Numbered from the stretch's first letter, positions 3,330 to 28,761 are shown. The stretch is DNA of 64,000 nucleotides from Alphaproteobacteria bacterium (GCA_963665325.3 OZ224045.1:480001-544000), one strand, 5' to 3'. Translations and numbers: made by a program. Notes: generated from the sequence alone by a model not told the origin.

Positions 3330-4715
3330 CTACCAGGCCTCCGCTCGGGACGGGCCGCGCTTCCAGTCGCCGCTATGGTCCGGGCGCCAGAACCCGCGCG
3401 ACCCGGCCGGGCCGTCCGCCGTGCGCGGCGAGCGGGCGCGCGGCGCGGCCGTGTAGCCAAACTCGACCGGGCCGGTTGCGGCAGCCGACGCCATCAGCGC
3501 CGCCGCCCAGAAGCGGTCCGCGTGGCCGTCGTCGCTGTCGTCGGCCAGCAACCGGACCTGGCCGGTCGGCCCGACGACCTTTTGCACGGAATGCAGGTCC
3601 GCCCGAATCTTGGCGTCGCCCTGCGGGATGCGGATCTTCCTGTCCTCAAACCGTTCCTTCAGGCAGGTCGCCATGTGCAGTTTCGACGCCGCGCTGAATA
3701 TCACGCCCTCGACCGTGTTCCGTCCGTAGCGGCGCTGCGCGTCCTCGACCGGCTTCTCTCCCATGCCCGTCTGGTCCATGGCGAGCCGCACCGGACGGTA
3801 GCGCTCCATCATCTCGTCGAGCGTCGTGTCCTGTTCCATGAAGGTCTTGCCGCCAAGGATGCGGACCTCGCGTGTCCATGCCACGTCTCCGATCATCTCG
3901 GCCGCCCAGGCACACCAGAGGTGGCGCCGGCGTCCGATATCGTTCCCGACGAAGCACTGCCCGCCCGTGTAATGTTCCGGATAGCCGGCGAGCGGGTTCT
4001 CGCAACTGTCGATCAGCTCGTATGGCAGCCAGGCCGACGCCTCGTCCAGCCACTCGCAGAGATACTCCTGGCGCCACAGTTCTTCGTCGGCCAGGCCGGC
4101 CCGAAGCTCCTCCGGGTCGACCGGGAAGCCGTCATCGACCGCCCGGTGGATGTTCACCATATGGCGCGACCACTGGCTGTCGTCGCCCGTCATCAGCTCG
4201 TAGAACTTTCCGGACTTCCCGTGCGGCGTCGAGGTGATGCGGATCTTCCAGCCCTTGGTGATCACCGGGAACAGCGCGCCCCAGATCTCGCGGCTGCTCT
4301 TGTGGATGGCGAACTCGTCCAGGAACACATTGCGGGAATAGCCGCGGGCGGTGTCGGGGTTGGCCGGCAACGCCGTCACGATGTTGCCGCCGCCGGCGTC
4401 CCACTCGTTGGCGCGGTATTTCTGGCCGTCGATGTCCAGATCGTATTCCGTTTCCTTCAGGACGAGCCCGTAAGCCTTCGCGTGCAGCTGGATGCCGGCG
4501 CGCATCGCCTCACGCGCCTGGCGGTCGCCGCGCGACAGGATCACCCAGGGAGACGCCCGCCCCTGCGAACGGGCCGTGTAAATGTCGTCGACGATCTCCA
4601 GCGTCGTGGTGAAGGTCTTGCCGACCTGCCGCGACCAGAGCCCGATCTTGAACCGGCTCCGGTCGAGGAACCACTTCTGCTGATAGTCATAGATCGGGAC
4701 GGCCGGCTCACTCAT
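3330..4715 (-). CDS. Terminase large subunit (Mu gp28-like)
   Basis: YQQKW...WSRQVGKTF Walker A, VFLDEFA Walker B, STPHG, GNDIGRRRH, HADRFWA nuclease motifs. Confidence 0.93.
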   Translation of the reverse strand: MSEPAVPIYDYQQKWFLDRSRFKIGLWSRQVGKTFTTTLEIVDDIYTARSQGRASPWVILSRGDRQAREAMRAGIQLHAKAYGLVLKETEYDLDIDGQKYRANEWDAGGGNIVTALPANPDTARGYSRNVFLDEFAIHKSSREIWGALFPVITKGWKIRITSTPHGKSGKFYELMTGDDSQWSRHMVNIHRAVDDGFPVDPEELRAGLADEELWRQEYLCEWLDEASAWLPYELIDSCENPLAGYPEHYTGGQCFVGNDIGRRRHLWCAWAAEMIGDVAWTREVRILGGKTFMEQDTTLDEMMERYRPVRLAMDQTGMGEKPVEDAQRRYGRNTVEGVIFSAASKLHMATCLKERFEDRKIRIPQGDAKIRADLHSVQKVVGPTGQVRLLADDSDDGHADRFWAAALMASAAATGPVEFGYTAAPRARSPRTADGPAGSRGFWRPDHSGDWKRGPSRAEAW

Positions 4716-18565: not shown

Positions 18566-18784
18566 CTCGATGTGGCGACTCTGGCGCTCAGGAGAGTCGC
18601 CACATCGAGAGTCGCCAGATTGAGTCGCCACCTGACGACTCGGAGTCACCCGTTTCGCATTTCTGGCGACTCTCGCGATTTTGGTCGTTTCCGCCTTGCG
18701 CGCCCCCTCCGCCCTTATTTCACTTGCCCTTCAGCCCCTCACGCCTCTTTTCACTTCTTCACGTCACCTGGCGACTCCGAGTCA
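18566..18784. repeat. Clustered GAGTCGCCA/TGGCGACTC motifs, putative transposase-binding sites of the prophage end
   Basis: Copies at 18573, 18594, 18609, 18622, 18664 and 18769. 17-bp perfect IR at 18566-18582/18593-18609. 18/20 direct repeat at 18629-18648/18765-18784. Confidence 0.75.
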
Positions 18785-18804
18785 GATCATTCCCTACTCC
18801 TACA

Positions 18805-21800
18805 CAGGCGCAGGTCGCGTGCAGCACGGCCAATGCCGACGGCTCCTATGACGTTCCCTTCGACTGGGCGCTGAAGCCCTCCGGCCTCGCCGCCGGCACC
18901 AAGTTCCGCCTGCTGTTCGCCACCTCGACGAGGCGCAACGCCTCAGCGACCGACATCGGGACCTACAACACCTTCGTGCAGACCCGCGCCAAGGCGGGCC
19001 ACAGCGCGATCTCCGACAGCTGCGGCAACCTCTTCAAGGTGGTGGGCTCGACCTCCGCGATCGACGCCCGCGTCAACACCGACACCGAATCGACCGACAC
19101 GGCGGCGCTGATCTACTGGCTGAACGGCGCCAAGGTCGCCGACAGCTACGCCGACTTCTACGACGGAAGCTGGGACAGCCGTGCGCACAGGACCGAATCG
19201 GGAGGGACCAGCAGTTATACGTTCGTATTTACAGGCAGCAATCAGGACGGCACCAAGAGCTCCTCCATTGCATTTGGTGCAGCGGCGGTTAGCACAGCCA
19301 ATCTGAACAGCGGCGGTCCACTTGCTGGCTCCGGTTCTACTGTTAACACCGCTACCCACCGCTTCCTCGCCCTCTCCCCGATCTTCACGGTAGGCACGAA
19401 GCCGCACGTGACCATTTCCGCGGGCACTTCGCCGGTGACGGAGGGCACGGCGGCGAGCTTCACCCTGAGCGTCAGCCCGGTCCCGTCGGCGCCCCTGGAT
19501 GTCGATGTGCTCGTCAGCGACAACTCCGACTTCGTCGATGCGGCCAACCTGGGCTTCAAGACGGTCACGGTCCCGGCCGGCGCCGCCACGCACGCCTACA
19601 CCGTCCCCACGGTCGACGACACCGCGGACGACGCCAGCGGTGAGGTGGCTATGGCTATCTTCCCCGGAACGGACTACACAAGGGACGCTGTTGTCGCCCG
19701 TGTCGACGTCACCGACAACGACGCCACGCTTGTGAGCCTTGTGGCGACGTCGGACGTGACCTTCACGGAGGAGACCCCGACGGACACGGCGGCGGTGACG
19801 GTGCGCCTGGCGCGGCGGCTCTACGCGGGCGAGAACCTGGCGGTGCCGTTCGAAGTCTTTGGAAGCGGGGTTGCACTCCAGGACCAGTTAAATCGAAGCT
19901 ACACCCTGTCCGTTTCGGGCACCGGAGTGACTGCAACGGACCTGACAGGCAGCACCGCCTATGTACGCTTCACCGGCCACGACACCGACATCGTGCAGGA
20001 GGCCACGGTCACCGTGACGCCGACGAGCAACGACGACGGCAACACGGCGGCCGGTTCCCTCACGATGGAACTTTCGACTCTCTCGTCCGGCGACTGGACC
20101 CACAGCTTCACCACCGTCGGCGGCGGGGGCGCGCCCCACGGCACGGACGACGAGGTGAGGCTGGTCTATGCCGACAACGACGTAATGTTCGACACCCTGA
20201 CCCTGCTCGACCTCGGCGGGCCGCGGATCCACCTGGACATCGGGACCTCGCCGGGAGTGACCGGGAGCGGGCGCGACTGGACCCTCGAGGAGGGGACCGA
20301 CATCGTGCTGCGCTTCAGCAACCTCACGAGGACCCTGCACAGCCAGGACCTCGTGGTGAACTACGCCGTGGCGGGCGCCAAACACCATGTCCCCGACGGC
20401 CACCGGGGGACCCGGTCGGTGACGCTTCCGGCGAACACGCGCTCGGTCCAGGTGACCCTTCCGACCGAGGCCACCACCGACGACGAGACCGACGCGGAGC
20501 TGTCGGTGATGCTCCTGGCCGCGACCCCCCCGATGGGGGAGACCAACACCCTGGGGACCTACACGACCAACTTCAGGCCGCTGAACTTCACGGTCACGGA
20601 CGGATCGGACGGGCACACGAACAGAATCCGTCCGCTCGTCACGGTCGAGACGTGGTACGCGAACCCCTCCAACGACCCGGACGAGCCGGACAAGGAGGAC
20701 CCGCGGATCGAGGGGGAGGACCTCCAGTTCGACGTCCGGTTGGCCCCGGCGGCGCAGGTGCCGTTCACGGTCTGGCTGAAGGTCGAGGAGACCGTCGGGA
20801 CCGGTTACGGCGACTGCGTCGCGGCCGGGCAGGAGCGGGTGCGCACGGTCCGGTTCGCGCCCGGGGTGAGCTGGCGGACGCTCCGCGTGCCGACGGTGGA
20901 CGACGACGTGGACGAACATGACTGCGAGGTGACGGTGTCGCTGGCGTCGGATGCCGCGGGCACGGTGCCCGCGCCGGCGCAGGTATTTGTCAACGTGGAT
21001 AGCGGGCCGGGCCGCGGCGGCTACGGTATCGCCGTGGGCTCCGGTTTCGACGTGAGCGGGAAGGCCGTGGCGACGCGGCTGGTCCGCGACAACGAGACCG
21101 GCCCGAAGGGGAGCGGTTCGGATGACGGGATCGGTCCCGTGACCCCGGGCGCGGGTCCGGCGGTGACGATCGCGGCGGACCGGACGCAGGTCGACGAGGG
21201 CGGCGACGTGACCTTCACGGTCACGGCGGACCCGGCGCCGGCGCGCGACCTGGAAGTGACCGTGTCGGCCGACGAGGAGATGGGCTCGGGCGACGACCGC
21301 ACCGGCGGCGGGCATTTCGGGACGGTGACGGTCCGGGCGGGCCAGACGACGGCGACGTGGACGCTGACGACGATATCGGACCAGGTCGCCCTGGCCGACG
21401 GCACGGTGACGGGGCGCATCGAGGCGGGCGACGGCTATACGGTCGGCAAGCCGTTCGAGGTGACGGTGGCGCTGCTGGACGACGACGGGGTCGTGACGCA
21501 GAGCGTGACCGATCCCGTGACCCCGGGCGTGGACGCTGCGCTGGTGGCCGAGGTGACGGCGCTGGCGGACGGACATTCCAACCCGGATGCGGCGGCGCGG
21601 CTGCGGCGCGTCGTCAAGGGCATGACCGGGGAGGACGGCGGCTACACGGCGGAGGAGTGCCGGGAGGCCGCGACCCGGCACGGCGTGCTGTCCACATGGA
21701 AGCCCTGGTGCGACGAGATTGCGCGCCGCGAGGCGCACACGCCGCCCGTGCCGCAACAGCAGCAGGTCATGACCCTGCCGGCGGTGAGCGTCTCGGCGGG

Positions 21801-23214
21801 TGCGGGCGTGACCGAGGGCGGGGATGCGGTGTTCACGGTGACGGCGAGCCCGGCGCCCGCGGCGGAGCTGTCGGTGACGGTGACCGTCGCGGCGACGGGC
21901 GACTTCGGCATCACCGCGGGCAACCGATCGGTGACGATCCCGACGACGGGCAGCGCCACGCTGACGCTGGCGACGGCGAACGACAAGGCGGACGAGCCGG
22001 ACGGCTCGGTAAGCGTGACGGTGGCGGCCGGCAACGGCTACACGGTGGGTTCCCCCGCGTCGGGCAGCGTGTCCATAGCGGACGACGACCTGCCGCCGCC
22101 GGCGGTGTCGATCGCGGCGAAGGCGGCCTCGGTGACGGAAGGCGGCGCGGCCGCCTTCACGCTGACGGCCGACCGCGCGCCGGATGCCGACCTGACGGTG
22201 ACGCTTTCGGTCGCGGAGACCGGGGGCGGCGACCATGTGGCGGCGGCGGACGAGGGTCCGGCCACGGCGGTCATCGCGAAGGGCGCAACGGAGGCGGTCT
22301 TCTCCGTCGCCACGGTGGACGACGACGTGGACGAGCCGGACGGCTCGGTCACGGTGACGCTGAAGGACGGCGGGGGCTACACGGTCTCGCCGTCGCAGGG
22401 CGCGGCCGCGGTGACGGTCTCCGACAACGACGCGGCGGCGCTCCCGTCGCTGTCGGTGGCCGACGTGACGATCGAGGAGGACGCGTGGATGGAGTTCACG
22501 GTGCGCCTTTCGGCGCCTTCGGCAGGGGGCGTTTCGGTGAAGGTGTCGACGCGCGATTCGACCCCGGTCTCGGCGACGGCGCGGAAGGACTACTGGCCGC
22601 TGTCCGGACGGACGGTGAGCTTCCGCGCGGGCGAGACCGAGCGGTCCGTCGGGGTCATCGTCTTCGACGACAGCCATGACGAGGAGGCGGAGACGTTCGA
22701 GGTTGTGCTGTCGGATGCCAGGGGCGCGGCGATCGCCGACGGGGTCGCGGTCGGGACGATCGTGAACGACGACCCGATGCCGGCGGCGTGGCTGGCGCGG
22801 TTCGGGCGCACGGTGGCGGAGCAGGCGCTGGACGGGATCGCGGGCCGCATGGCGGCGGACCGCACGGCCGGCATGCAGGGCTCGATCGCCGGGCAGGCGC
22901 TCTCGTTCGATCCGGCCGCCAACGACAATGCGACCCCGGGCCATGCCGCCTCCGGGTCTCCGGCCTCCGGAGGGACCGGCGCGCTGGCGCTGGCCGATGT
23001 CGCGCGGGCGTTCGGCGGCCAGTCCGGCCATTCCGGCCCGGCCGGCTTCGGTCATGACGCGGCCGGGTTCGGCAGCGGCTTCGACGGAATGCAGCCGCAA
23101 TCGCGGACCATGACGATGCAAGACGTCCTGCTGGGCAGCAGTTTCTCGCTGACCGGCGCGACGGACGGCTCGGGCGGCAGCATGGCGTTCTGGGGCCGTG
23201 CGGCGCAGGGCGGC
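18805..23214 (+). pseudogene. Giant autotransporter adhesin, N-terminal/passenger part (lectin/endostatin-like domain plus Calx-beta repeats), disrupted
   Basis: Starts QAQ with no signal peptide. Repeated VTEG..FT...TVDD..DE.DG.VTV motifs, then NDDPMPAAWLARFGRTVA. The stop TGA is supplied by the transposon end. Confidence 0.85.
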
Positions 23215-23361
23215 TGAGCGGGCGCAGGCTTTCAGCGGCGATCAGGGGCTGATCGGCTCGGATTAATCGAGGTTTTGGATTGGGTGCCCCCCGGCGATCT
23301 TGCAAGAAGGCCGCCGGAGGGCTTGTCTCGGTGACAGTGACATCAACCTGAGACGGCCCCA

Positions 23362-23976
23362 ATGTCGCACAAGCTGTTCCGGCACTCCAATCTCTCCAAC
23401 GCCCGGGTTTGGGATTTTCTGAAGCAGGTCGACGCGGCCGAGGCGGAGGCGTGCCGGGCGGCGGGTTGCCCGCGCTGCGGCGGCGCGCTTCACAGCGCGA
23501 GCTACCCGCGCAAGCCGCACGGTCTGGCGGCGAATCTTCGGAACGACGTTCGGCGCTTCAGCCTGTGCTGTTCGGTGTGCCGACGCCGCGTGAAGCCGCC
23601 GTCGGTGCGTTTCTTCGGCAGGCGCTTTTACGTCGGGGCGCTGTTCCTTGTGGTGAGTGCGCTGGCTGTGGCCGGCGGCGCGCGGTTGCAGACGATCGCG
23701 CGGCGGTGCGGGGTTCCGGCCTCGACGCTGAAGCGCTGGCGGCGCTGGTGGCTGGAAGCCTTCCCGCTGACCCGGGAGTGGCAGGCGAGACGGGGCGAGC
23801 TGGCGGCGCCGCCCGAAGAGGCGCCGCTGCGCCGGCTGCTGCGCATCATGCGGGGCCGTGGCTTCCGCTCGCGGCTGCTGCGGAGCCTGGTCTGGCTGAT
23901 GCCGTGGACCGGCTTTTGCGCGCTCGGCGCAGGTCCGGCTTCGCCCGCAGAAAGCGTTTCTATGATGCACGGATAG
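23362..23976 (+). CDS. Zn-finger/HTH transposon accessory protein (DUF6431-like)
   Basis: CPRCGG...RFSLCCSVCRRR..PPSVRF, C-terminal HTH (GVPASTLKRWRRWW). Confidence 0.75.
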   Translation: MSHKLFRHSNLSNARVWDFLKQVDAAEAEACRAAGCPRCGGALHSASYPRKPHGLAANLRNDVRRFSLCCSVCRRRVKPPSVRFFGRRFYVGALFLVVSALAVAGGARLQTIARRCGVPASTLKRWRRWWLEAFPLTREWQARRGELAAPPEEAPLRRLLRIMRGRGFRSRLLRSLVWLMPWTGFCALGAGPASPAESVSMMHG

Positions 23977-24024
23977 GGCACCGCATCATCGGCACCTCCA
24001 CGAAGCAGCGAGGGGGATGCCGGA

Positions 24025-25499
24025 ATGAACAGCAACGACGGGAGCGAGCGTCGCGACCGGTGGGCGCGGTTGCGCTTCGCGGTGGTCGGGCCGCTTCTGG
24101 CCTCGCCGCCGCCGGCGGGGCGGCTGCACGCCGAGCTTGAGCGGCTTGCCGAACGCGAGTGGGATCACCCGTCCGGCAAGGGCCGGGTGCGCTTCGCGGT
24201 GTCCACGATCGAGCGCTGGTACTACCAGGCGCGGGCGGCGGACAACGATCCGGTGGGGGCGCTCAAGCGGCGCCCGCGCGCCGATGCCGGGCGCCCGCGC
24301 GCGATGTCGCCGACGCTGATCGAGGCGCTGCACGAGCAGTACCGGGCGCATCCGTCGTGGTCGGCGCAGCTTCATCACGAGAATCTGGCCGCGCGGGTCG
24401 AGGCCGATCCCGAGCTCGGCCCGATACCGTCCTACGCGACGCTGACCCGGGCGATGCGGGCTCGCGGGCTGGTACGCAAGCGCCGGCGCAAGTGGCATGA
24501 GAGCGAGGCCAGGCCGGCGGTCGAAGCCCGCGAGGTATTGAGCTACGAGGTCTCGCGCTCTCACGCCCTGTGGCACGCCGACATGCACAGCGCCAAGCGT
24601 CGCGTGCTGACCGCCTCGGGCGAGTGGAAGACGCCGATCCTGCTCGGCTTCCTCGACGACCACTCGCGCCTCGGCTGCCACCTTCAGTGGTACCTCGCCG
24701 AGACCGCCGAGGTGTTCGTCCACGGCCTTTGCCAGGCCTTCATGAAGCGCGGTCTGCCGAGGTCCCTGCTGACCGACAACGGCGCGGCGATGACCGCGGG
24801 CGAGGTCGAGGAGGGGTTGCACCGGCTCGGCATCGCGGGGGTCACGACGCTCGCTTACAGCCCCCATCAGAACGGCAAGATCGAGTCGTTCTGGGGCACG
24901 GTCGAATCGCGCCTGATGGCTCAGCTCGAAGGCGTCGACGCGCTTACCTTGAAGATGCTCAACGACGCCACCATCGCCTGGCTGGAGCAGGACTATCACC
25001 GCCGCAAGCACCGCGAGCTCGGCATGACGCCGCATCAACGCCTGGCCGGGAGCGTCGACGCGTCGAGATCCTGCCCCGGCTCGGCCGAGCTCAAGGCGGC
25101 CTTCCGCATCACCAGGAAGCGCACGCTCAGGCGCTCGGACGGCACCGTCTCGGTCGAGGGCATCCGCTACCAGGTGCCACAGCCGTGGCGCCACCTGCGC
25201 GAGGCCTGGATCCGTTACGCGCGCTGGAACCTCGCCAGCGTCGATCTGATCGACGGTCGAGGCGGCGAGCGCCTGTGCACGCTGTACCCCTCGACAAGCG
25301 CGGCAACGCCGATGGCGTGCGCCGTCCCGCCGGCCCCGGCGGCAACGATGGCAATGGCGGCGCGGGGACGGGGGAACTTCCGCCGCTGCTCAAGGGCATG
25401 CTCGACGCCCAGGCCGCAACCGGCCTGCCGCCGGCCTGGCTGCCCCATGACAAGACGCCCGGTCCGGGCGAGGACGAAGATCGGGGAGATGCGCCATGA
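24025..25499 (+). CDS. DDE integrase/transposase with -1 frameshift at about 25290
   Basis: WHADMH, LTDNGAAM, NGKIESFW. The C-terminus LDKRGNADG...ELPPLL...TGLPPAWLP lies in the frame ending at 25499, which overlaps the next ATG. Confidence 0.88.
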
Positions 25500-26329
25500 A
25501 CCGGGAACTGCTCACCTTCTACGGGCTCAAGTGGAACCCCTTCGCCACCGACCTGCCGGTCGACAGTCTCATGGCGACGCCTGCCGTCGACAGCTTCTGC
25601 CTCAGGATCGAGCGCCACCTGGTGCGCCAGGGCGGCTTCGCCTTGATCGCCGGCGAGCCCGGCGCCGGAAAGAGTGTGGCGTTGCGCCTGCTCGCCGACC
25701 GTCTCGGCCGCTGCGAGGGGCTCAGCATCGCCGCCATCACCCATCCCTCCTCCCGGCTGTCCGACTTCTACCGCGAGATCGGCGAGATGTTCGGCGTCGA
25801 CCTGATGTACAACAACCGCTGGGCCAGCTTCAAAAGCCTGCGCGAGCGCTGGCTCGCCCATGTCGACGATACCCGCATGCGCCCCGTCGTGCTCGTCGAC
25901 GAGGCCCAGGAGCTGCTGCCCTCGGTGTTCTCCGAGATCCGCCTGCTGGCTTCGACCGACTTCGACTCGCGCGCCATCCTCTCGGTCGTCCTCGCCGGCG
26001 ACACGCGCCTGCTCGACAAGCTCCGCCAGCCCGATCTGCAGCCCATCGCCTCGCGCATCCGCCAGCGCCTGGTCATGACCAAGGCCGAGGCCGGCGACCT
26101 CGCGGCCCTGCTCGACCATCTGATCGAGCAGGCCGGCAATCCCGGCCTCATGACCGCGGGCCTCAAGGACACCCTGGTCGCCCATGCCGACGGCAACCCG
26201 CGGGCGCTCACCGTCATGGCCGACGCCCTGCTCGCCGCCGCCGCCGAGAAGGAGCGCGAGGTCCTCGACGAGAAGCTCTTCATCGAGACCCTGGGCGAAC
26301 CCGCCAAGCCGAGGAGGGCGCGGCGGTGA
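25496..26329 (+). CDS. ExeA-like AAA+ ATPase (transposon helper)
   Basis: FYGLKWNPF, GEPGAGKS, VLVDEAQEL, PIASRIR, GNPRAL. Confidence 0.88.
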   Translation: MNRELLTFYGLKWNPFATDLPVDSLMATPAVDSFCLRIERHLVRQGGFALIAGEPGAGKSVALRLLADRLGRCEGLSIAAITHPSSRLSDFYREIGEMFGVDLMYNNRWASFKSLRERWLAHVDDTRMRPVVLVDEAQELLPSVFSEIRLLASTDFDSRAILSVVLAGDTRLLDKLRQPDLQPIASRIRQRLVMTKAEAGDLAALLDHLIEQAGNPGLMTAGLKDTLVAHADGNPRALTVMADALLAAAAEKEREVLDEKLFIETLGEPAKPRRARR

Positions 26330-27324
26330 AGGGCTTCCCGACACGGGCGCCGGCGGAGCTCGAAGAGCGCCCCCAGGCGCGCCGCTGGATGGTCGAGGCG
26401 TTGTGGTCCGAGCAGGGCGTCGGCATCGTCGGCGGCGAGCCCAAGTGCGGCAAATCCTTCCTCGCACTCGACATCGCCGTCGCGGTCGCCGCCGGCGTCC
26501 CCTGCCTGCGCCACTTCCGTCCCGCCGCAAGCGGCCCCGTGCTGCTGTTCGCCGCCGAGGACGCCGGCCATATCGTGCGCGCACGCCTCCAGGGCATCGC
26601 AAAGGCGGCAGGCACCGCGTTCGAGACCCTCGACATCGCCGTCATCGACGTGCCCACGCTGCGTCTCGACCATCGCGCCGATCGCCAGCGCCTGGTCGAG
26701 ACGGTGGAGCGCGTCTCACCCCGCCTCGTCGTCCTCGACCCCCTCGTGCGCCTGCACGGCGTCGACGAAAATACCGTCGCCGAGGTCGCCCCCATGCTGG
26801 GCTTCCTGCGCGACATACAGCGCCGCTTCGAAACCGCCGTCCTCCTCGTCCATCACGCACGAAAGAGCGGCGGCTCCCGGCCCGGGCAGGCGCTGCGCGG
26901 CAGCAGCGAACTTCACGCCTGGGGCGATTCGAATCTGTACCTGCGCCGGCGAGACCGCCAGATCCTCATGACCGTCGAGCATCGCGACGCCCCTGGCCTC
27001 GAAGACCTCGAGATCGAACTCGCCGACGACGACGAGCGCCCCGCCCTGCGGTTGCGCGAGACGCCGGAAGACCAGGCGCCGGAGCCGGATACCCCCGAAC
27101 GGCGCATCCTGCAGGCCCTCGCCGACGCCGACGCGCCGCTCTCCCAGCGCCGGATCCGCGAGCGCGCGGCAACCCGGCCCGCAACCGTCGCCGAGGCGCT
27201 GCACAGGCTCGTCCGCGAAGGACGCGTCGAGCGCGCATCCGAAGGCGGATACCGCCTCGCCGCCCTCAACGGCAACGACCGCAGGGACACGTTACCGAAA
27301 ACCGTTACCGCCTCGAACCCCTAG
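26326..27324 (+). CDS. RecA-fold RepA-like helicase (AAA_25) with C-terminal wHTH
   Basis: RWMVEALW, GGEPKCGKSF, LFAAED, VVLDPL, LLVHHARK, LRGSSELHAWGD, LSQRRIRE...VAEALHRLVREG. Confidence 0.85.
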   Translation: MKGFPTRAPAELEERPQARRWMVEALWSEQGVGIVGGEPKCGKSFLALDIAVAVAAGVPCLRHFRPAASGPVLLFAAEDAGHIVRARLQGIAKAAGTAFETLDIAVIDVPTLRLDHRADRQRLVETVERVSPRLVVLDPLVRLHGVDENTVAEVAPMLGFLRDIQRRFETAVLLVHHARKSGGSRPGQALRGSSELHAWGDSNLYLRRRDRQILMTVEHRDAPGLEDLEIELADDDERPALRLRETPEDQAPEPDTPERRILQALADADAPLSQRRIRERAATRPATVAEALHRLVREGRVERASEGGYRLAALNGNDRRDTLPKTVTASNP

Positions 27325-27603
27325 GGAGAGAGGGTAACGGTAACGGGTAACACCGCTCCCATTGTCACACTGCGTAAAGCGGCCGGCCCGTGGCCGGAAG
27401 CTTGCTTACGGCCATGGATGCACTCCGTCGGAGGGACGGCGGCGGGTCACCCGAAGGGCCGGAGCGCAGCGCAGGAGCCGCGAAGCGGCTTGACGCGCCG
27501 ACGGCCGTCCGACACCCCCGCCGTCACGCCCGGCCCGACGCCTGAAAACCATCGAACAACGTGACCATCCCGCCATCAGATACCGAGAGCACACTCAGGC
27601 GGC

Positions 27604-28761
27604 TTCGACGGCCGCGAGGGGACGTTCTCGCTCGACGGCACGGTCACCACGGGCATGCTCGGCGCGGACTATGCCCGCGGCAAGTGGCTGGTCGGCCTTG
27701 CGCTCGCGCAAAGCGAGGGCGAGGGCGACTACCGCGACAGCGATGTCGCTCCCCGCTCCAACAGCCAGACCTGCCCCTCCGATGCGGAGGGCGCGGACGC
27801 CGAACTGTGCCGGAACGCGGTGCGGGCGGGCGACGGCAAGGTGGAGGCGTCGCTGACGGCGGCGATCCCCTATGCGGCGTTGCAGGTCTCGGAGCGCCTG
27901 AAGCTCTGGGGCGCGGCGGGCTACGGTTCGGGCGAGGTAACGCTGAAGACCGCGCTCGGCGGGAGCTACAAGGCGGACACCAGCTGGAGCATGGCGGCGG
28001 CCGGGCTTCGGGGCGACCTGCTGGCTGCCCCGGCGGAGGGTTCCGGCCCGGCGCTGGCGGTGACCTCGGACGCGCTGTGGACGCGGAGCTCTTCTGAGAA
28101 GACCCGCGACCTCGCGGCGTCGGAGTCCGACGCGACCCGGCTGAGGCTCGGCCTGGAGGGCAGCTACCGCATGGCCCTTGAGGGCGGCGGTCATCTGACG
28201 CCGAAGCTGGAGGTCGGCGCGCGCCATGACGGCGGCGACGCGGAGACCGGCTTCGGGGTCGAGATCGGCGGCGGGATCGCGTGGAGCGACCCGGCGCTAG
28301 GTCTGTCGCTGGACGTCTCGGGGCGCACGCTGATCGCGCACGGCAACGACGACCTGAAGGACCGGGGCTATGCGGCCGCGCTCGCCTTCGATCCGGACCC
28401 GGCGACCGGGCGGGGTCCGTCGCTGAGCCTGCGCCAGGAGTTCGGCGGGCAGGCCAATGGCGGTCTCGACGCGCTGTTCCAGCCGGCGACGCTGGAGGAC
28501 CGCACGGGCAGCGAGGCCGCGTCCCGCTGGGCGATGGAGGCGGCCTACGGCTTCCCGGCCTTCGGCGGGCGCTGGACCGGCAGCCCGCATATGGGTCTGG
28601 GGCTCGCTACGGCTACGCGCGACTACAGCCTCGGCTGGCGCCTGACGCCGGAAGCCGCGAACGCGCCCGCCCTGTCGTTCGGTCTCAGGGCGACACGGCG
28701 GGAGAGCGACACGGCGCAGGCGGAGCACACGGTCGGGGTCGAGATTACCGCCCGCTGGTGA
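27604..28761 (+). pseudogene. Giant autotransporter, C-terminal beta-barrel part
   Basis: In frame with the upstream part once the element is removed. GMLGADY, EVGARHDGGDAETGFGVEIGGG, terminal ...ITARW. Confidence 0.88.

Follow-up and report, generated by a model that had tools for sequence, protein, structure and literature searches.

A multicopy Tn6049-type transposon carrying a RepA-like ATPase gene and a hexamer repeat array

An active DDE transposon with four genes and precise boundaries interrupts an autotransporter gene in the 64,000-nucleotide stretch of alphaproteobacterial DNA analysed here (the window). The core of the element is known from Tn6049, whereas its fourth gene, encoding a RepA-like AAA_25 ATPase with a winged helix (wHTH) and accompanied by a hexamer array, is new. 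Our best reading, to which we assign a probability of roughly 0.6, is that this module couples transposition to element-directed replication.

Boundaries, target duplications and genome copies

The initial annotation had described a 4383-bp element with TGAG...CTCA termini and weak further inverted repeat similarity, and this was borne out for the window copy (Table 1). Past TGAG, about 8 of 12 positions match in the inverted repeat when aligned by eye. The interrupted host gene encodes Calx-beta and LapA domains on the left of the insertion and an Autotransporter beta-domain on the right. Its 5′ part ends at an element-borne TGA (23215-23217), and the reading frame continues over the insertion site (...AFWGRAAQGG / FDGREGTFSLDG...), as had been proposed. 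In uninterrupted paralogues of the same genome (C1:581079-581295, C2:4713-4943 and C4:45796-46028), the left and right flanks overlap by 6 bp, so that the GGCGGC duplication is truly 6 bp long at the window copy. Relatives in other genomes have TGAG..CTCA ends as well, with duplications of 4-5 bp. The arms of the left-end hairpin, which may be a promoter or operator, show compensatory changes (judged by eye) across the relatives and Tn6049.

Table 1. Features of the transposon and its insertion site, in positions of the window
Feature	Position	Strand	Remarks
Host gene, 5′ part (large Calx-beta/LapA-repeat autotransporter)	18724..23214	+	ORF enters element
Left target-site duplication, GGCGGC	23209..23214	.	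6 bp
Transposon	23215..27597	+	4383 bp in window copy; canonical form 4384 bp; one of 24 genome copies
Left terminal imperfect inverted repeat (TGAGCGGGCGCA...)	23215..23240	+	TGAG end kept in relatives
Left-end hairpin/palindrome	23286..23322	+	GCCCCCCGGCG-(loop with CTTGCAAGAAG)-CGCCGGAGGGC; conserved
Gene 1, Cys-rich protein with HTH_23	23362..23976	+	204 aa; 40% identity to Tn6049 orf1
Gene 2, rve-type DDE transposase	24025..25499	+	491 aa intact; D186, D251, E287
Gene 3, AAA_22 ATPase, ExeA/GspA-like	25496..26329	+	277 aa; start overlaps transposase stop; 52% identity to Tn6049 ATPase
Gene 4, AAA_25 RecA-fold ATPase	26326..27324	+	332 aa; C-terminal winged helix; GTG start overlaps ATPase stop
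Hexamer-repeat motif, end of gene 4	27302..27351	+	partial left arm CCGTTACC 27302-09; GGTAAC at 27333-38, 27339-44, 27346-51
Right end	27549..27597	+	subterminal CCATC(G/A) repeats 27549-58, 27573-82, then terminal ...GAGAGCACACTCA
Right target-site duplication, GGCGGC	27598..27603	.	6 bp
Host gene, 3′ part (autotransporter beta-domain)	27604..28761	+	

The copy count that the initial annotation had called for gave 24 near-identical copies in the genome, 21 of them identical at 4384 bp; the length of 4383 bp thus holds for the window copy and not for the canonical element. An exact duplication of 4-6 bp flanks 20 of the 24 copies, whereas shuffled flank pairings, used as a control, gave a repeat of at least 4 bp in about 4%. 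The duplication is 4 bp long in 8 copies, 5 bp in 10 and 6 bp in 2, with no exact repeat in the remaining 4, so the proposed length of 6 bp stands for the window copy but is not the rule of the element. Such simple insertions with clean duplications (20/24) fit cut-and-paste transposition and resolved cointegrates equally. The element has recently been active, and its 24 copies stem from a recent burst.

The window copy has CCCC at 25287-25290 where the identical copies have CCCCC, and the transposase frame is shifted at this position. The extra C was found in contigs from three DNA runs (depth 612.7/624.7, 104.2/104.2 and 35.4/35.4), and a second copy (C3:175650-180032) likewise deviates solely in a C-run. 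The missing C may therefore be a homopolymer assembly error. Alternatively, the transposase of the window copy may itself be frameshifted, in which case transposase could be supplied in trans by the other copies in the genome.

Core genes

The proposed gene order (a Cys-rich/HTH_23 ORF, an rve DDE transposase, an AAA_22 ATPase and an AAA_25+wHTH protein) and the coupling of the last three genes were confirmed, as all domains were found and start and stop codons overlap in ATGA (25496-25499) between genes 2 and 3 and in GTGA (26326-29) between genes 3 and 4. In the gene 1 protein C36, C39, C69, C70 and C73 are invariant and H44 is nearly so; its predicted structure, a poor model with a pLDDT of only 60.6, gave no fold match. 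The catalytic residues of the transposase are invariant in 18 sequences and were also read in the intact copy. Pfam rve scored below its cut-off (27.8 vs 32.6) and rve_3 reached 26.6 vs 26.5, while the PHROG transposase family phrog_310, which we read as Mu-type, was matched with an E-value of 2.4e-40. The ATPase scored 72.6 bits with AAA_22 and matched phrog_296, 'DNA transposition protein', with an E-value of 1.4e-23. These PHROG matches suggest that genes 2 and 3 form a MuA/MuB-like core. Pfam and NCBIfam searches with the four proteins detected no Mu-transpos_C, TniB, TniQ, TnsD or TniR/BinL domain, no TnsA-like second nuclease and no resolvase.

The RepA-like ATPase and the hexamer array

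Gene 4 scored 124.8 bits with AAA_25 (cut-off 27), and a profile built from 24 sequences matched RepA of RSF1010 (1g8y) with an E-value of 8.8e-16. Over these 24 sequences the Walker A motif (G37 and K43, with S44 nearly invariant) and the Walker B motif (D138) are conserved, as are the stretches GGEPKCGKS and LVLDP. Foldseek matched the structural model (pLDDT 77.6) to DnaB, RadA and RepA, with a target TM of 0.68 for RepA (1g8y). We infer a RepA-like helicase of the SF4 type at family level only, because RadA, KaiC and Rad51 paralogues fit the RecA fold of the model nearly as well as DnaB and RepA do.

Relatives carry a full 3+3 inverted hexamer array after this gene, whereas the left arm in the window copy is only 8 bp long. 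Among 102 unique loci, 56 had an inverted repeat scoring at least 10 after the helicase gene; the maximum in 40 shuffles was 9. When the hexamer was compared with the residue that follows the invariant R284 of the winged helix, GGTAAC was paired with P in 6 of 7 cases, GGGAAC with N in 15 of 25 and GGAACC with K in 4 of 7. After controlling for relatedness the link was not significant (7 independent pairs, 3.5 same, 0.3 opposite; median p 0.25). Judging from the sequences, the C-terminal winged helix probably reads the threefold GGTAAC array.

Gene 4 is a long-standing part of the element

The Tn6049-type family is very large and phylum-spanning, with at least 530 loci in species-representative genomes. 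A survey of homologous loci upheld the claim that the helicase is a core gene: a gene 4 homologue lies directly 3′ of the ATPase gene in 59 of 80 transposase-selected loci. Of 40 non-redundant rows in the transposase tree, 27 have the gene, and these fall on either side of the tree's midpoint. Within one transposase clade (support 100, 21 rows), every element has the helicase gene. Conversely, among the 73 metagenome loci that were selected by the helicase and extended far enough upstream, 70 have a Tn6049-type ATPase gene adjoining it. In the loci with 51-54% transposase identity, helicase identity goes down to 39-55%. As the helicase has diverged about as far as the transposase while keeping its invariant residues, long retention under selection is suggested, and by these comparisons gene 4 is a conserved part of the element rather than sporadic cargo. 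Among close relatives the identities are mosaic, for instance 92% for the transposase and 68% for the helicase in locus L011.

The same module, at 50-57% identity, was found behind three backbones: the Tn6049 type, IS21 IstA/IstB (L112 and L117) and a distant rve/AAA_22 pair (L149). In the IS21-type metagenome elements the helicase (54-56% identity) and the hexamer palindrome directly follow istB, and the hexamer motif is also present behind the helicase of L149. Other replication-related genes occur in this region of the relatives. In 8 of 40 non-redundant elements the helicase gene is followed by one for a DUF3991+Toprim protein, a DnaA_N-AAA_25 fusion takes position 4 in one element (L075) and a Bac_DnaA_C protein does so in another (L078). 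The window element is without a Toprim gene. On domain assignments, the fourth slot of the Tn6049-type family is repeatedly occupied by replication-related proteins.

Discussion

The element combines a MuA-type rve DDE transposase, a MuB-like AAA_22 ATPase and an upstream Cys-rich/HTH protein with TG...CA-type ends and staggered cuts of 4-6 bp. In the reading that we prefer, a self-contained RepA/DnaB-like replication-type module would take the place of the small fourth ORF of Tn6049 in this lineage. The winged helix would recognise the hexamer array downstream of its gene, and the module, for which hexamer formation and unwinding are predicted, would load a hexameric helicase onto the element's own DNA; in some relatives a Toprim primase-like protein would be added. 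Either the strand-transfer intermediate would then be replicated, as phage Mu does through host restart proteins, or the donor copy would be over-replicated. The case for a replicative mechanism is strengthened by relatives that have Toprim, DnaA_N or DnaA_C genes in this slot. Against a needed helicase, Tn6049-type elements without it multiply to 12 copies in CH34 (PMC2864759), so that the module is not required for transposition as such.

A wider version of this reading may be put forward tentatively. The initiator-helicase and the 3+3 inverted hexamer array, sometimes with the Toprim primase, could form a portable replication-initiation cassette that has been captured repeatedly by DDE plus AAA+ transposons, its hosts being the Tn6049 type, IS21 and at least one other. 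The array would then be an iteron-like mini-origin or loading site, and either an own fork would be assembled on the strand-transfer intermediate or the origin would be fired in situ. Sister elements, with their SSB-tail-like small ORF4 or DnaA-domain genes, would reach the same goal via host replication proteins. If true, these would be self-replicating bacterial DDE transposons.

A cassette of this kind could also be a selfish hitch-hiker, left over from the replication module of a phage or plasmid and without a role in transposition. Its presence behind three different backbones, its own DNA motif, the mosaic identities among close relatives, L011 included, and the phage primase-helicase proteins that are the PHROG and Atlas neighbours of gene 4 all speak for such an origin. 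However, we consider it unlikely, since the slot is constant, after the ATPase gene and within the right end, the start of gene 4 overlaps the ATPase stop, and the helicase has diverged about as much as the transposase over the deepest split. Moreover, the module encodes no recombinase of its own, and all backbones so far are DDE plus AAA+ two-protein transposons, suggesting a functional fit. A role of gene 4 in target selection or regulation, like that of TnsD, TnsE or TniQ, strikes us as improbable; its protein would then steer insertion, for example to replication forks or certain DNA structures, or act in immunity or expression via the winged helix. Target selectors vary among Tn7-like elements, and the fourth position here likewise differs by lineage (small ORF, helicase, DnaA_C, DnaA_N fusion); the copies are also clustered, with 7 of 24 in C1 between 1.98 and 2.10 Mb. 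Neither GC skew nor gene-strand bias yielded an origin or terminus of replication in this genome. But the 24 insertion sites have no common sequence beyond GC-richness, and the repeats to which the winged helix appears matched lie within the element, not at targets.

The initial annotation had taken the element for an undescribed transposon class built on a new set of core genes. For the transposase no NCBIfam IS-family model reached its cut-off (the best was IS481), our literature search yielded no description of a DDE plus ATPase transposon with a helicase gene, and 72,556 plasmid records held no close homologue of gene 4 (best 30.5%). Yet Tn6049 already has the TG-type ends, the short duplications and, in the same order, three of the four genes. 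This match refutes the claim, which has very little probability left and survives solely as that of an undescribed variant.

To our knowledge, replisome recruitment by replicative DDE transposons is known in detail for phage Mu alone. An element with its own helicase, a matching DNA site and, in relatives, a primase would provide a simple, testable model of how transposition and replication are joined. Self-encoded replication could also explain bursts such as the 24 copies here and the 12 in a congener. Furthermore, Tn6049, so far an annotation in Cupriavidus, represents a far larger family, and 4.4-kb repeats of this kind break metagenome genome assemblies.

Comparison with known systems

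Sequence comparison places the element in the Tn6049 group. Tn6049 was named for C. metallidurans CH34, where it is present in the 12 copies mentioned above (PMC2864759), and also occurs on the Pseudomonas aeruginosa plasmid pHS87a, there with 3517 bp, TG-initiated imperfect 12-bp terminal repeats (TGTGCaTaAGCA) and a 4-bp duplication (PMC4739549); what these two sources provide on it is at annotation level. Genes 1 to 3 have the same order and strand as in the pHS87a copy, and blastp gave identities of 40% (E 2e-29), 51% (E 3e-151) and 52% (E 6e-98). The elements are further alike in their TG-type imperfect ends, short duplications and multicopy state, and the left-end non-coding region can be aligned in part, hairpin included. 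In contrast, the fourth gene of Tn6049 is an unrelated 90-aa ORF without similarity to the 332-aa AAA_25+wHTH protein, and Tn6049 is about 3.5 kb long with TGTG termini, whereas the window element has 4384 bp in its canonical form, TGAG termini and the hexamer array.

Membership of the IS481 family was rejected, since transpos_IS481 (NCBIfam) reached 123.9 bits, short of its cut-off of 224, and the four genes set the element apart from a single-gene IS. NCBI labels the Tn6049 transposase IS481, and the transposases of the family are mislabelled as such. The two-protein DDE plus AAA+ design is shared with IS21 (IstA/IstB), but the transposase scored 45.1 bits with transpos_IS21 (cut-off 160) and the ATPase is an AAA_22 protein with no match to IstB_IS21, so this family was rejected as well.

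Like Mu, Tn552, Tn5053 and Tn7, the element has TG..CA ends and a transposase with its D,D,E triad in an rve-fold core, followed directly downstream by an AAA+ ATPase of the target-capture type, which weakly matches MuB of phage Mu (8xvb, E 0.056). Its duplications of 4-6 bp differ from the fixed 5 bp of the Mu group. Tn7, Tn5053 and Tn552 proper were rejected because TnsA, TniQ/TnsD and resolvase domains were not found with Pfam and NCBIfam. Mu has no second nuclease, follows a replicative pathway and depends on host restart proteins. The window element likewise is without a TnsA-type nuclease, which makes a replicative pathway possible, but it encodes a helicase-like protein itself.

Gene 4 shares its RecA-fold core with RepA of RSF1010 (1g8y). 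RepA, however, has no winged helix and acts at the plasmid origin with RepB and RepC, whereas gene 4 sits inside a transposon, with no replicon evident. In fusing an ATPase to a DNA-binding domain beside short inverted repeat arrays, gene 4 would resemble, by analogy, phage P4 alpha and SV40 large T, initiator-helicases that bind origin repeats.

Genomic copies and boundaries of the element

Our analysis shows that the element in the window is a recently active DDE transposon of the type of Tn6049, a named transposon of Cupriavidus metallidurans CH34 and plasmid pHS87a, and that a conserved RepA-like gene and an array of hexamers form part of it. The element starts with TGAGCGGG, ends with CACACTCA and is flanked by GGCGGC at either side. 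When we searched the window's own genome (G000, five contigs C1 to C5, 5.58 Mb), 24 full-length copies were found, spread over all five contigs. In total, 21 of these are 4384 bp long and mutually identical. A single C is missing from a C-run in the window copy and in one copy on C3, while one copy on C1 is split by a 2.07-kb insertion sequence. All 24 copies depart from their flanks at the same two bases. The boundaries are therefore exact, as the initial annotation had proposed.

That annotation had also assigned a target-site duplication of 6 bp. At the window copy this duplication is genuine, as uninterrupted autotransporter paralogues in the same genome contain both flanks with a 6-bp overlap. 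However, 6 bp is not the rule: exact direct repeats of 4 bp were found at the ends of 8 copies, of 5 bp in 10 and of 6 bp in 2, and 4 copies have none. In a control with shuffled flank pairings, repeats of at least 4 bp occurred in about 4% of cases. Two of the four repeat-less copies (G000:C2:25283-29666 and G000:C4:930514-934897) have swapped flanks, each without its own duplication: the left flank at C2:29666 and the right flank at C4:934897 share CGACC (5 bp), and the reverse pairing shares ACGG (4 bp). Such an exchange is what recombination between copies on two contigs would leave behind, or a cointegrate, be it unresolved or re-resolved. The assembler could also have produced it by joining sequences across the repeat.

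A 120-kb stretch (G000:C1:1982775-2101890) holds seven of the 24 copies, six of which share one orientation. The cumulative GC skew rises steeply there, and the cluster may be due to local hopping or mark a plastic island. With respect to insertion orientation and replication direction, no V-shaped cumulative GC skew was found on any of the five contigs, and the gene-strand bias was flat. A joined 'empty-site' form (23208>27598) is present in contigs of three DNA runs. Since its matching sides measure just 26-34 letters, it may originate in paralogous autotransporter genes, and we set it aside as proof of excision or polymorphism. Likewise, RNA-library contigs (X17) cover only short pieces of the element, some with many differences, and were unusable as evidence of expression.

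Restoration of the host frame, also part of the initial annotation, was confirmed: the interrupted protein is continuous across the site, with Calx-beta/LapA repeats before it and an Autotransporter beta-domain after it. Large autotransporter genes with Calx-beta/LapA repeats form a family in this genome, and it is the window member that the transposon has split. Paralogues are located at C1:581 kb, C2:4.7 kb, C3:1,024 kb, C4:45.8 kb and C5:37 kb. At the junction with the beta-domain, the family members share 82-97% DNA identity.

Genes of the element

The gene order and the coupling of the last three genes are as first described (see table). In the product of gene 1, the cysteines C36, C39, C69, C70 and C73 are fully conserved, and H44 almost fully. 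Its predicted model is poor (pLDDT 60.6), and a Foldseek search for a TniQ-like fold gave no match at E <= 0.001. A lead from the Atlas towards DUF6431 was dropped, as none of 22 family members match this domain in Pfam. The catalytic triad of the transposase (D186, D251, E287) is invariant among 18 relatives. In the window copy the shortened C-run shifts the transposase reading frame; the extra C is present in contigs of all three public DNA runs. Because the sole other variant copy, on C3, likewise differs in a homopolymer, an assembly error is conceivable for the window copy.

Features of the window copy and their positions in the window
Feature	Position	Length	Description
Interrupted autotransporter gene (5' part)	18724-23214		Calx-beta/LapA repeats
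Element	23215-27597
Hairpin/palindrome	23286-23322		upstream of gene 1
Gene 1	23362-23976	204 aa	Cys-rich, HTH_23
Gene 2		491 aa (canonical copy)	rve-type DDE transposase
C-run in gene 2	25287-25290		CCCC in place of CCCCC
Gene 3	25496-26329		AAA_22 ATPase; ATG overlaps transposase stop
Gene 4	26326-27324		AAA_25 (124.8 bits) and C-terminal winged helix; GTG overlaps ATPase stop
Partial inverted copy of hexamers	27302-27309
Hexamer array	27333-27351		GGTAAC x3, straight after gene 4 stop codon

The hairpin upstream of gene 1 has CTTGCAAGAAG in its loop and is kept at the left ends of Tn6049 (L091) and of the related loci L014-L059. Its arms show compensatory changes among relatives including Tn6049 (CCCCCCGG/CCGGAGGG, CCCCTCGG/CCGAGGGG and CCCTCAGG/CCTGAGGG), and it may be a promoter, an operator or a 5' leader structure.

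For gene 4, a profile built from 24 members of the family hits RepA, the hexameric helicase of RSF1010 (1g8y), with an E of 8.8e-16. The AlphaFold model (pLDDT 77.6) resembles DnaB, RadA and RepA, with the best target coverage for RepA (TM 0.68). Little or no variation is seen in Walker A (GGEPKCGKS), Walker B (LVLDP) and the motifs that follow them. As the fold is also near those of RadA, KaiC and the Rad51 paralogues, 'helicase' is meant here at the level of the family.

Conservation of gene 4 among related elements

A transposase-profile scan of species-representative genomes yielded at least 530 relatives, of which the best 80 were kept; all 80 loci come from metagenome-assembled genomes. 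They belong to Alpha- and Gammaproteobacteria, Acidobacteriota, Chloroflexota, Gemmatimonadota, Actinomycetota, Verrucomicrobiota, Nitrospinota and Myxococcota. A gene 4 homologue lies directly 3' of the ATPase in 59 of these best 80 loci, and in several more it is displaced by insertions. A small ORF takes the fourth position in 9 loci and a DnaA_C protein in 1; the rest end too early. A quick maximum-likelihood tree was computed from 40 non-redundant transposases. All members of one clade (21 rows, support 100) carry the helicase. On the other side of the tree are a small-ORF clade with Tn6049 in it (11 rows, support 91) and additional branches that bear the helicase. Ten of the 16 other species-genomes in the genus of the window contain the helicase, at an identity of 63-83% (73% or more in nine of them); one of the ten has 12 full-length matches.

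Selection by the helicase gave at least 568 loci, of which again the best 80 were kept. Among 73 helicase-selected metagenome loci (50-81% similarity, at least 300 bp upstream), a Tn6049-type ATPase adjoins the helicase in 70, although in one of these, L149, the neighbouring transposase and ATPase are merely 25-26% identical to those of the window. The three exceptions are L100, in which the homologue stands behind a Tn6049-like small ORF, and L112 and L117, in which it stands behind an IS21 IstB (IstB_IS21, 204 and 192 bits), with an IstA C-terminus further upstream in L112 and IstB alone in L117. In the plasmid collection no close gene 4 homologue was found (best 30.5%), and only three relatives turned up in viral contigs, all distant (30-34% identity) and outside any transposon context.

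L112 and L117 can be described as IS21-family elements with an AAA_25 and winged-helix helicase as third gene and the hexamer palindrome behind it. Since IstB is related to the helicase loader DnaC, its pairing with a helicase is worth a look in itself.

A hexamer motif follows gene 4

In relatives, the hexamers behind gene 4 form a full palindrome with three hexamers per arm and a 14-28-nt spacer. An inverted repeat score of at least 10 was reached in 56 of 102 unique loci, whereas 40 shuffled controls averaged 6.7 and did not exceed 9. The motif is also found behind the IS21-borne homologues and in L149. Depending on the lineage, the hexamer reads GGTAAC, GGGAAC, GGAAAC, GGAAG(C/T) or GGAACC. 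Among the 77 of 102 loci that could be classified, the residue following the invariant R284 of the winged helix tracks the hexamer: P with GGTAAC (6/7), N with GGGAAC (15/25), A or T with GGAAAC (19/20) and K with GGAACC (4/7). A test controlled for relatedness had 7 independent pairs, too few for significance (median p 0.25). The link between hexamer type and winged-helix residue is no more than suggestive.

The right end was also considered as an RNA. This reading was rejected, as Rfam gave no match at E <= 1 over 23100-27700 and the fold of 27320-27597 was no better than shuffles (z -1.0).

In the split copy (C1:2290596-2297053, in region L176, G000:C1:2290000-2297600), the break lies just after the helicase stop codon. 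The 2.07-kb insert, for which a group II intron had been guessed, is an insertion sequence that codes for a DDE_Tnp_1 transposase of 604 aa. The remnant of a related element is found some 34 kb upstream of the window (L092, G000:C1:444000-455000), 83% identical over element positions 3980-4120 and 86% identical to the left end. Here, a group II intron (Rfam RF02003, RF00029) sits exactly at the hexamer array and is itself broken by three consecutive ORFs, which by eye read as tyrosine recombinases. The two cases represent independent insertions at the hexamer motif.

Other proteins at position 4

A DUF3991 and Toprim protein follows the helicase in 8 of 40 non-redundant elements. In L075 a DnaA_N domain is fused to AAA_25, and in L078 a Bac_DnaA_C protein replaces the helicase. 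The small fourth ORF of Tn6049-clade elements (70-100 aa; L068, L071-L074, L076, L079, L082, L088 and L091) has a conserved core, L(S/T)DE(A/S)A..L.DFL...FE..Y..QLRRYY, and, in 8 of 10 sequences, an acidic C-terminal tail whose last residue is F (e.g. ...DLFEDFDKIPF, DDDLPDF). This tail resembles the C-terminal hexapeptide of SSB, DDDIPF, a tip that docks replication proteins according to PMC5872125.

A model for gene 4 function

We propose that the transposase, aided by the ATPase, would join the 3' ends of the element to staggered target cuts of 4-6 bp. Pfam and NCBIfam searches of its proteins found no second nuclease and no resolvase, which makes a Mu-like, fork-shaped intermediate plausible. 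The gene 4 protein would then bind the hexamer array via its winged helix, form a ring and unwind the element, so that replication could start from the element itself without host restart proteins. Some relatives add a primase-like protein.

An alternative is that the gene 4 module is a hitch-hiking cassette. In its favour, identities are mosaic across the four genes in the close clade (92% for the transposase and 68% for the helicase of L011), and the IS21-borne homologues show the module in another setting. On the other hand, the helicase has diverged about as far as the transposase: loci with 51-54% transposase identity have 39-55% helicase identity to the window protein. The association with the ATPase from both directions of selection (59/80 and 70/73) argues against sporadic cargo, in agreement with the initial view of the helicase as a core gene, and we consider the cassette unlikely. 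We give slightly less weight still to gene 4 as a target selector or regulator, a role with which a winged helix is compatible. We favour replication from the element by the gene 4 protein.

Comparison with known transposon families

None of the IS-family models of NCBIfam reached its cut-off, the top one being IS481 (123.9 bits vs 224). The transposase falls into the PHROG transposase family phrog_310 (E 2.4e-40) and the ATPase into phrog_296, 'DNA transposition protein' (E 1.4e-23), which we take to be Mu-type and MuB-like, respectively. The core combines a two-protein system of the MuA/MuB kind with one further small DNA-binding protein. A defence-system reading was discarded, as PADLOC gave no meaningful match.

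In a translated search of 72,556 plasmids, pHS87a and Cupriavidus plasmids ranked first, with 50% identity over 94% of the transposase. The annotation of pHS87a lists a 181-aa ORF, a 479-aa 'IS481 family transposase', a 277-aa AAA ATPase and a 90-aa hypothetical protein. Genes 1-3 of the window are 40, 51 and 52% identical to the first three, whereas gene 4 does not match the fourth. In the sections of PMC2864759 and PMC4739549 that deal with Tn6049, it is described at annotation level alone, as a 3.5-kb element with a 'gspA' ATPase, 12 copies in CH34 (PMC2864759), 12-bp imperfect inverted repeats and a 4-bp direct repeat (PMC4739549). The gene matches and this description place the core of the window element with a known, named kind, and the earlier proposal of an undescribed transposon class has to be abandoned. 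No description of a DDE and ATPase transposon with a RepA-like helicase was found in the literature searched.

Compared to other families, the element fails the models of both IS481 and IS21, and the extra genes of Tn7, Tn5053 and Tn552 are missing from it. What is known already is the Tn6049-type core, and from the description of Tn6049 the window element departs only in its size and its fourth gene.
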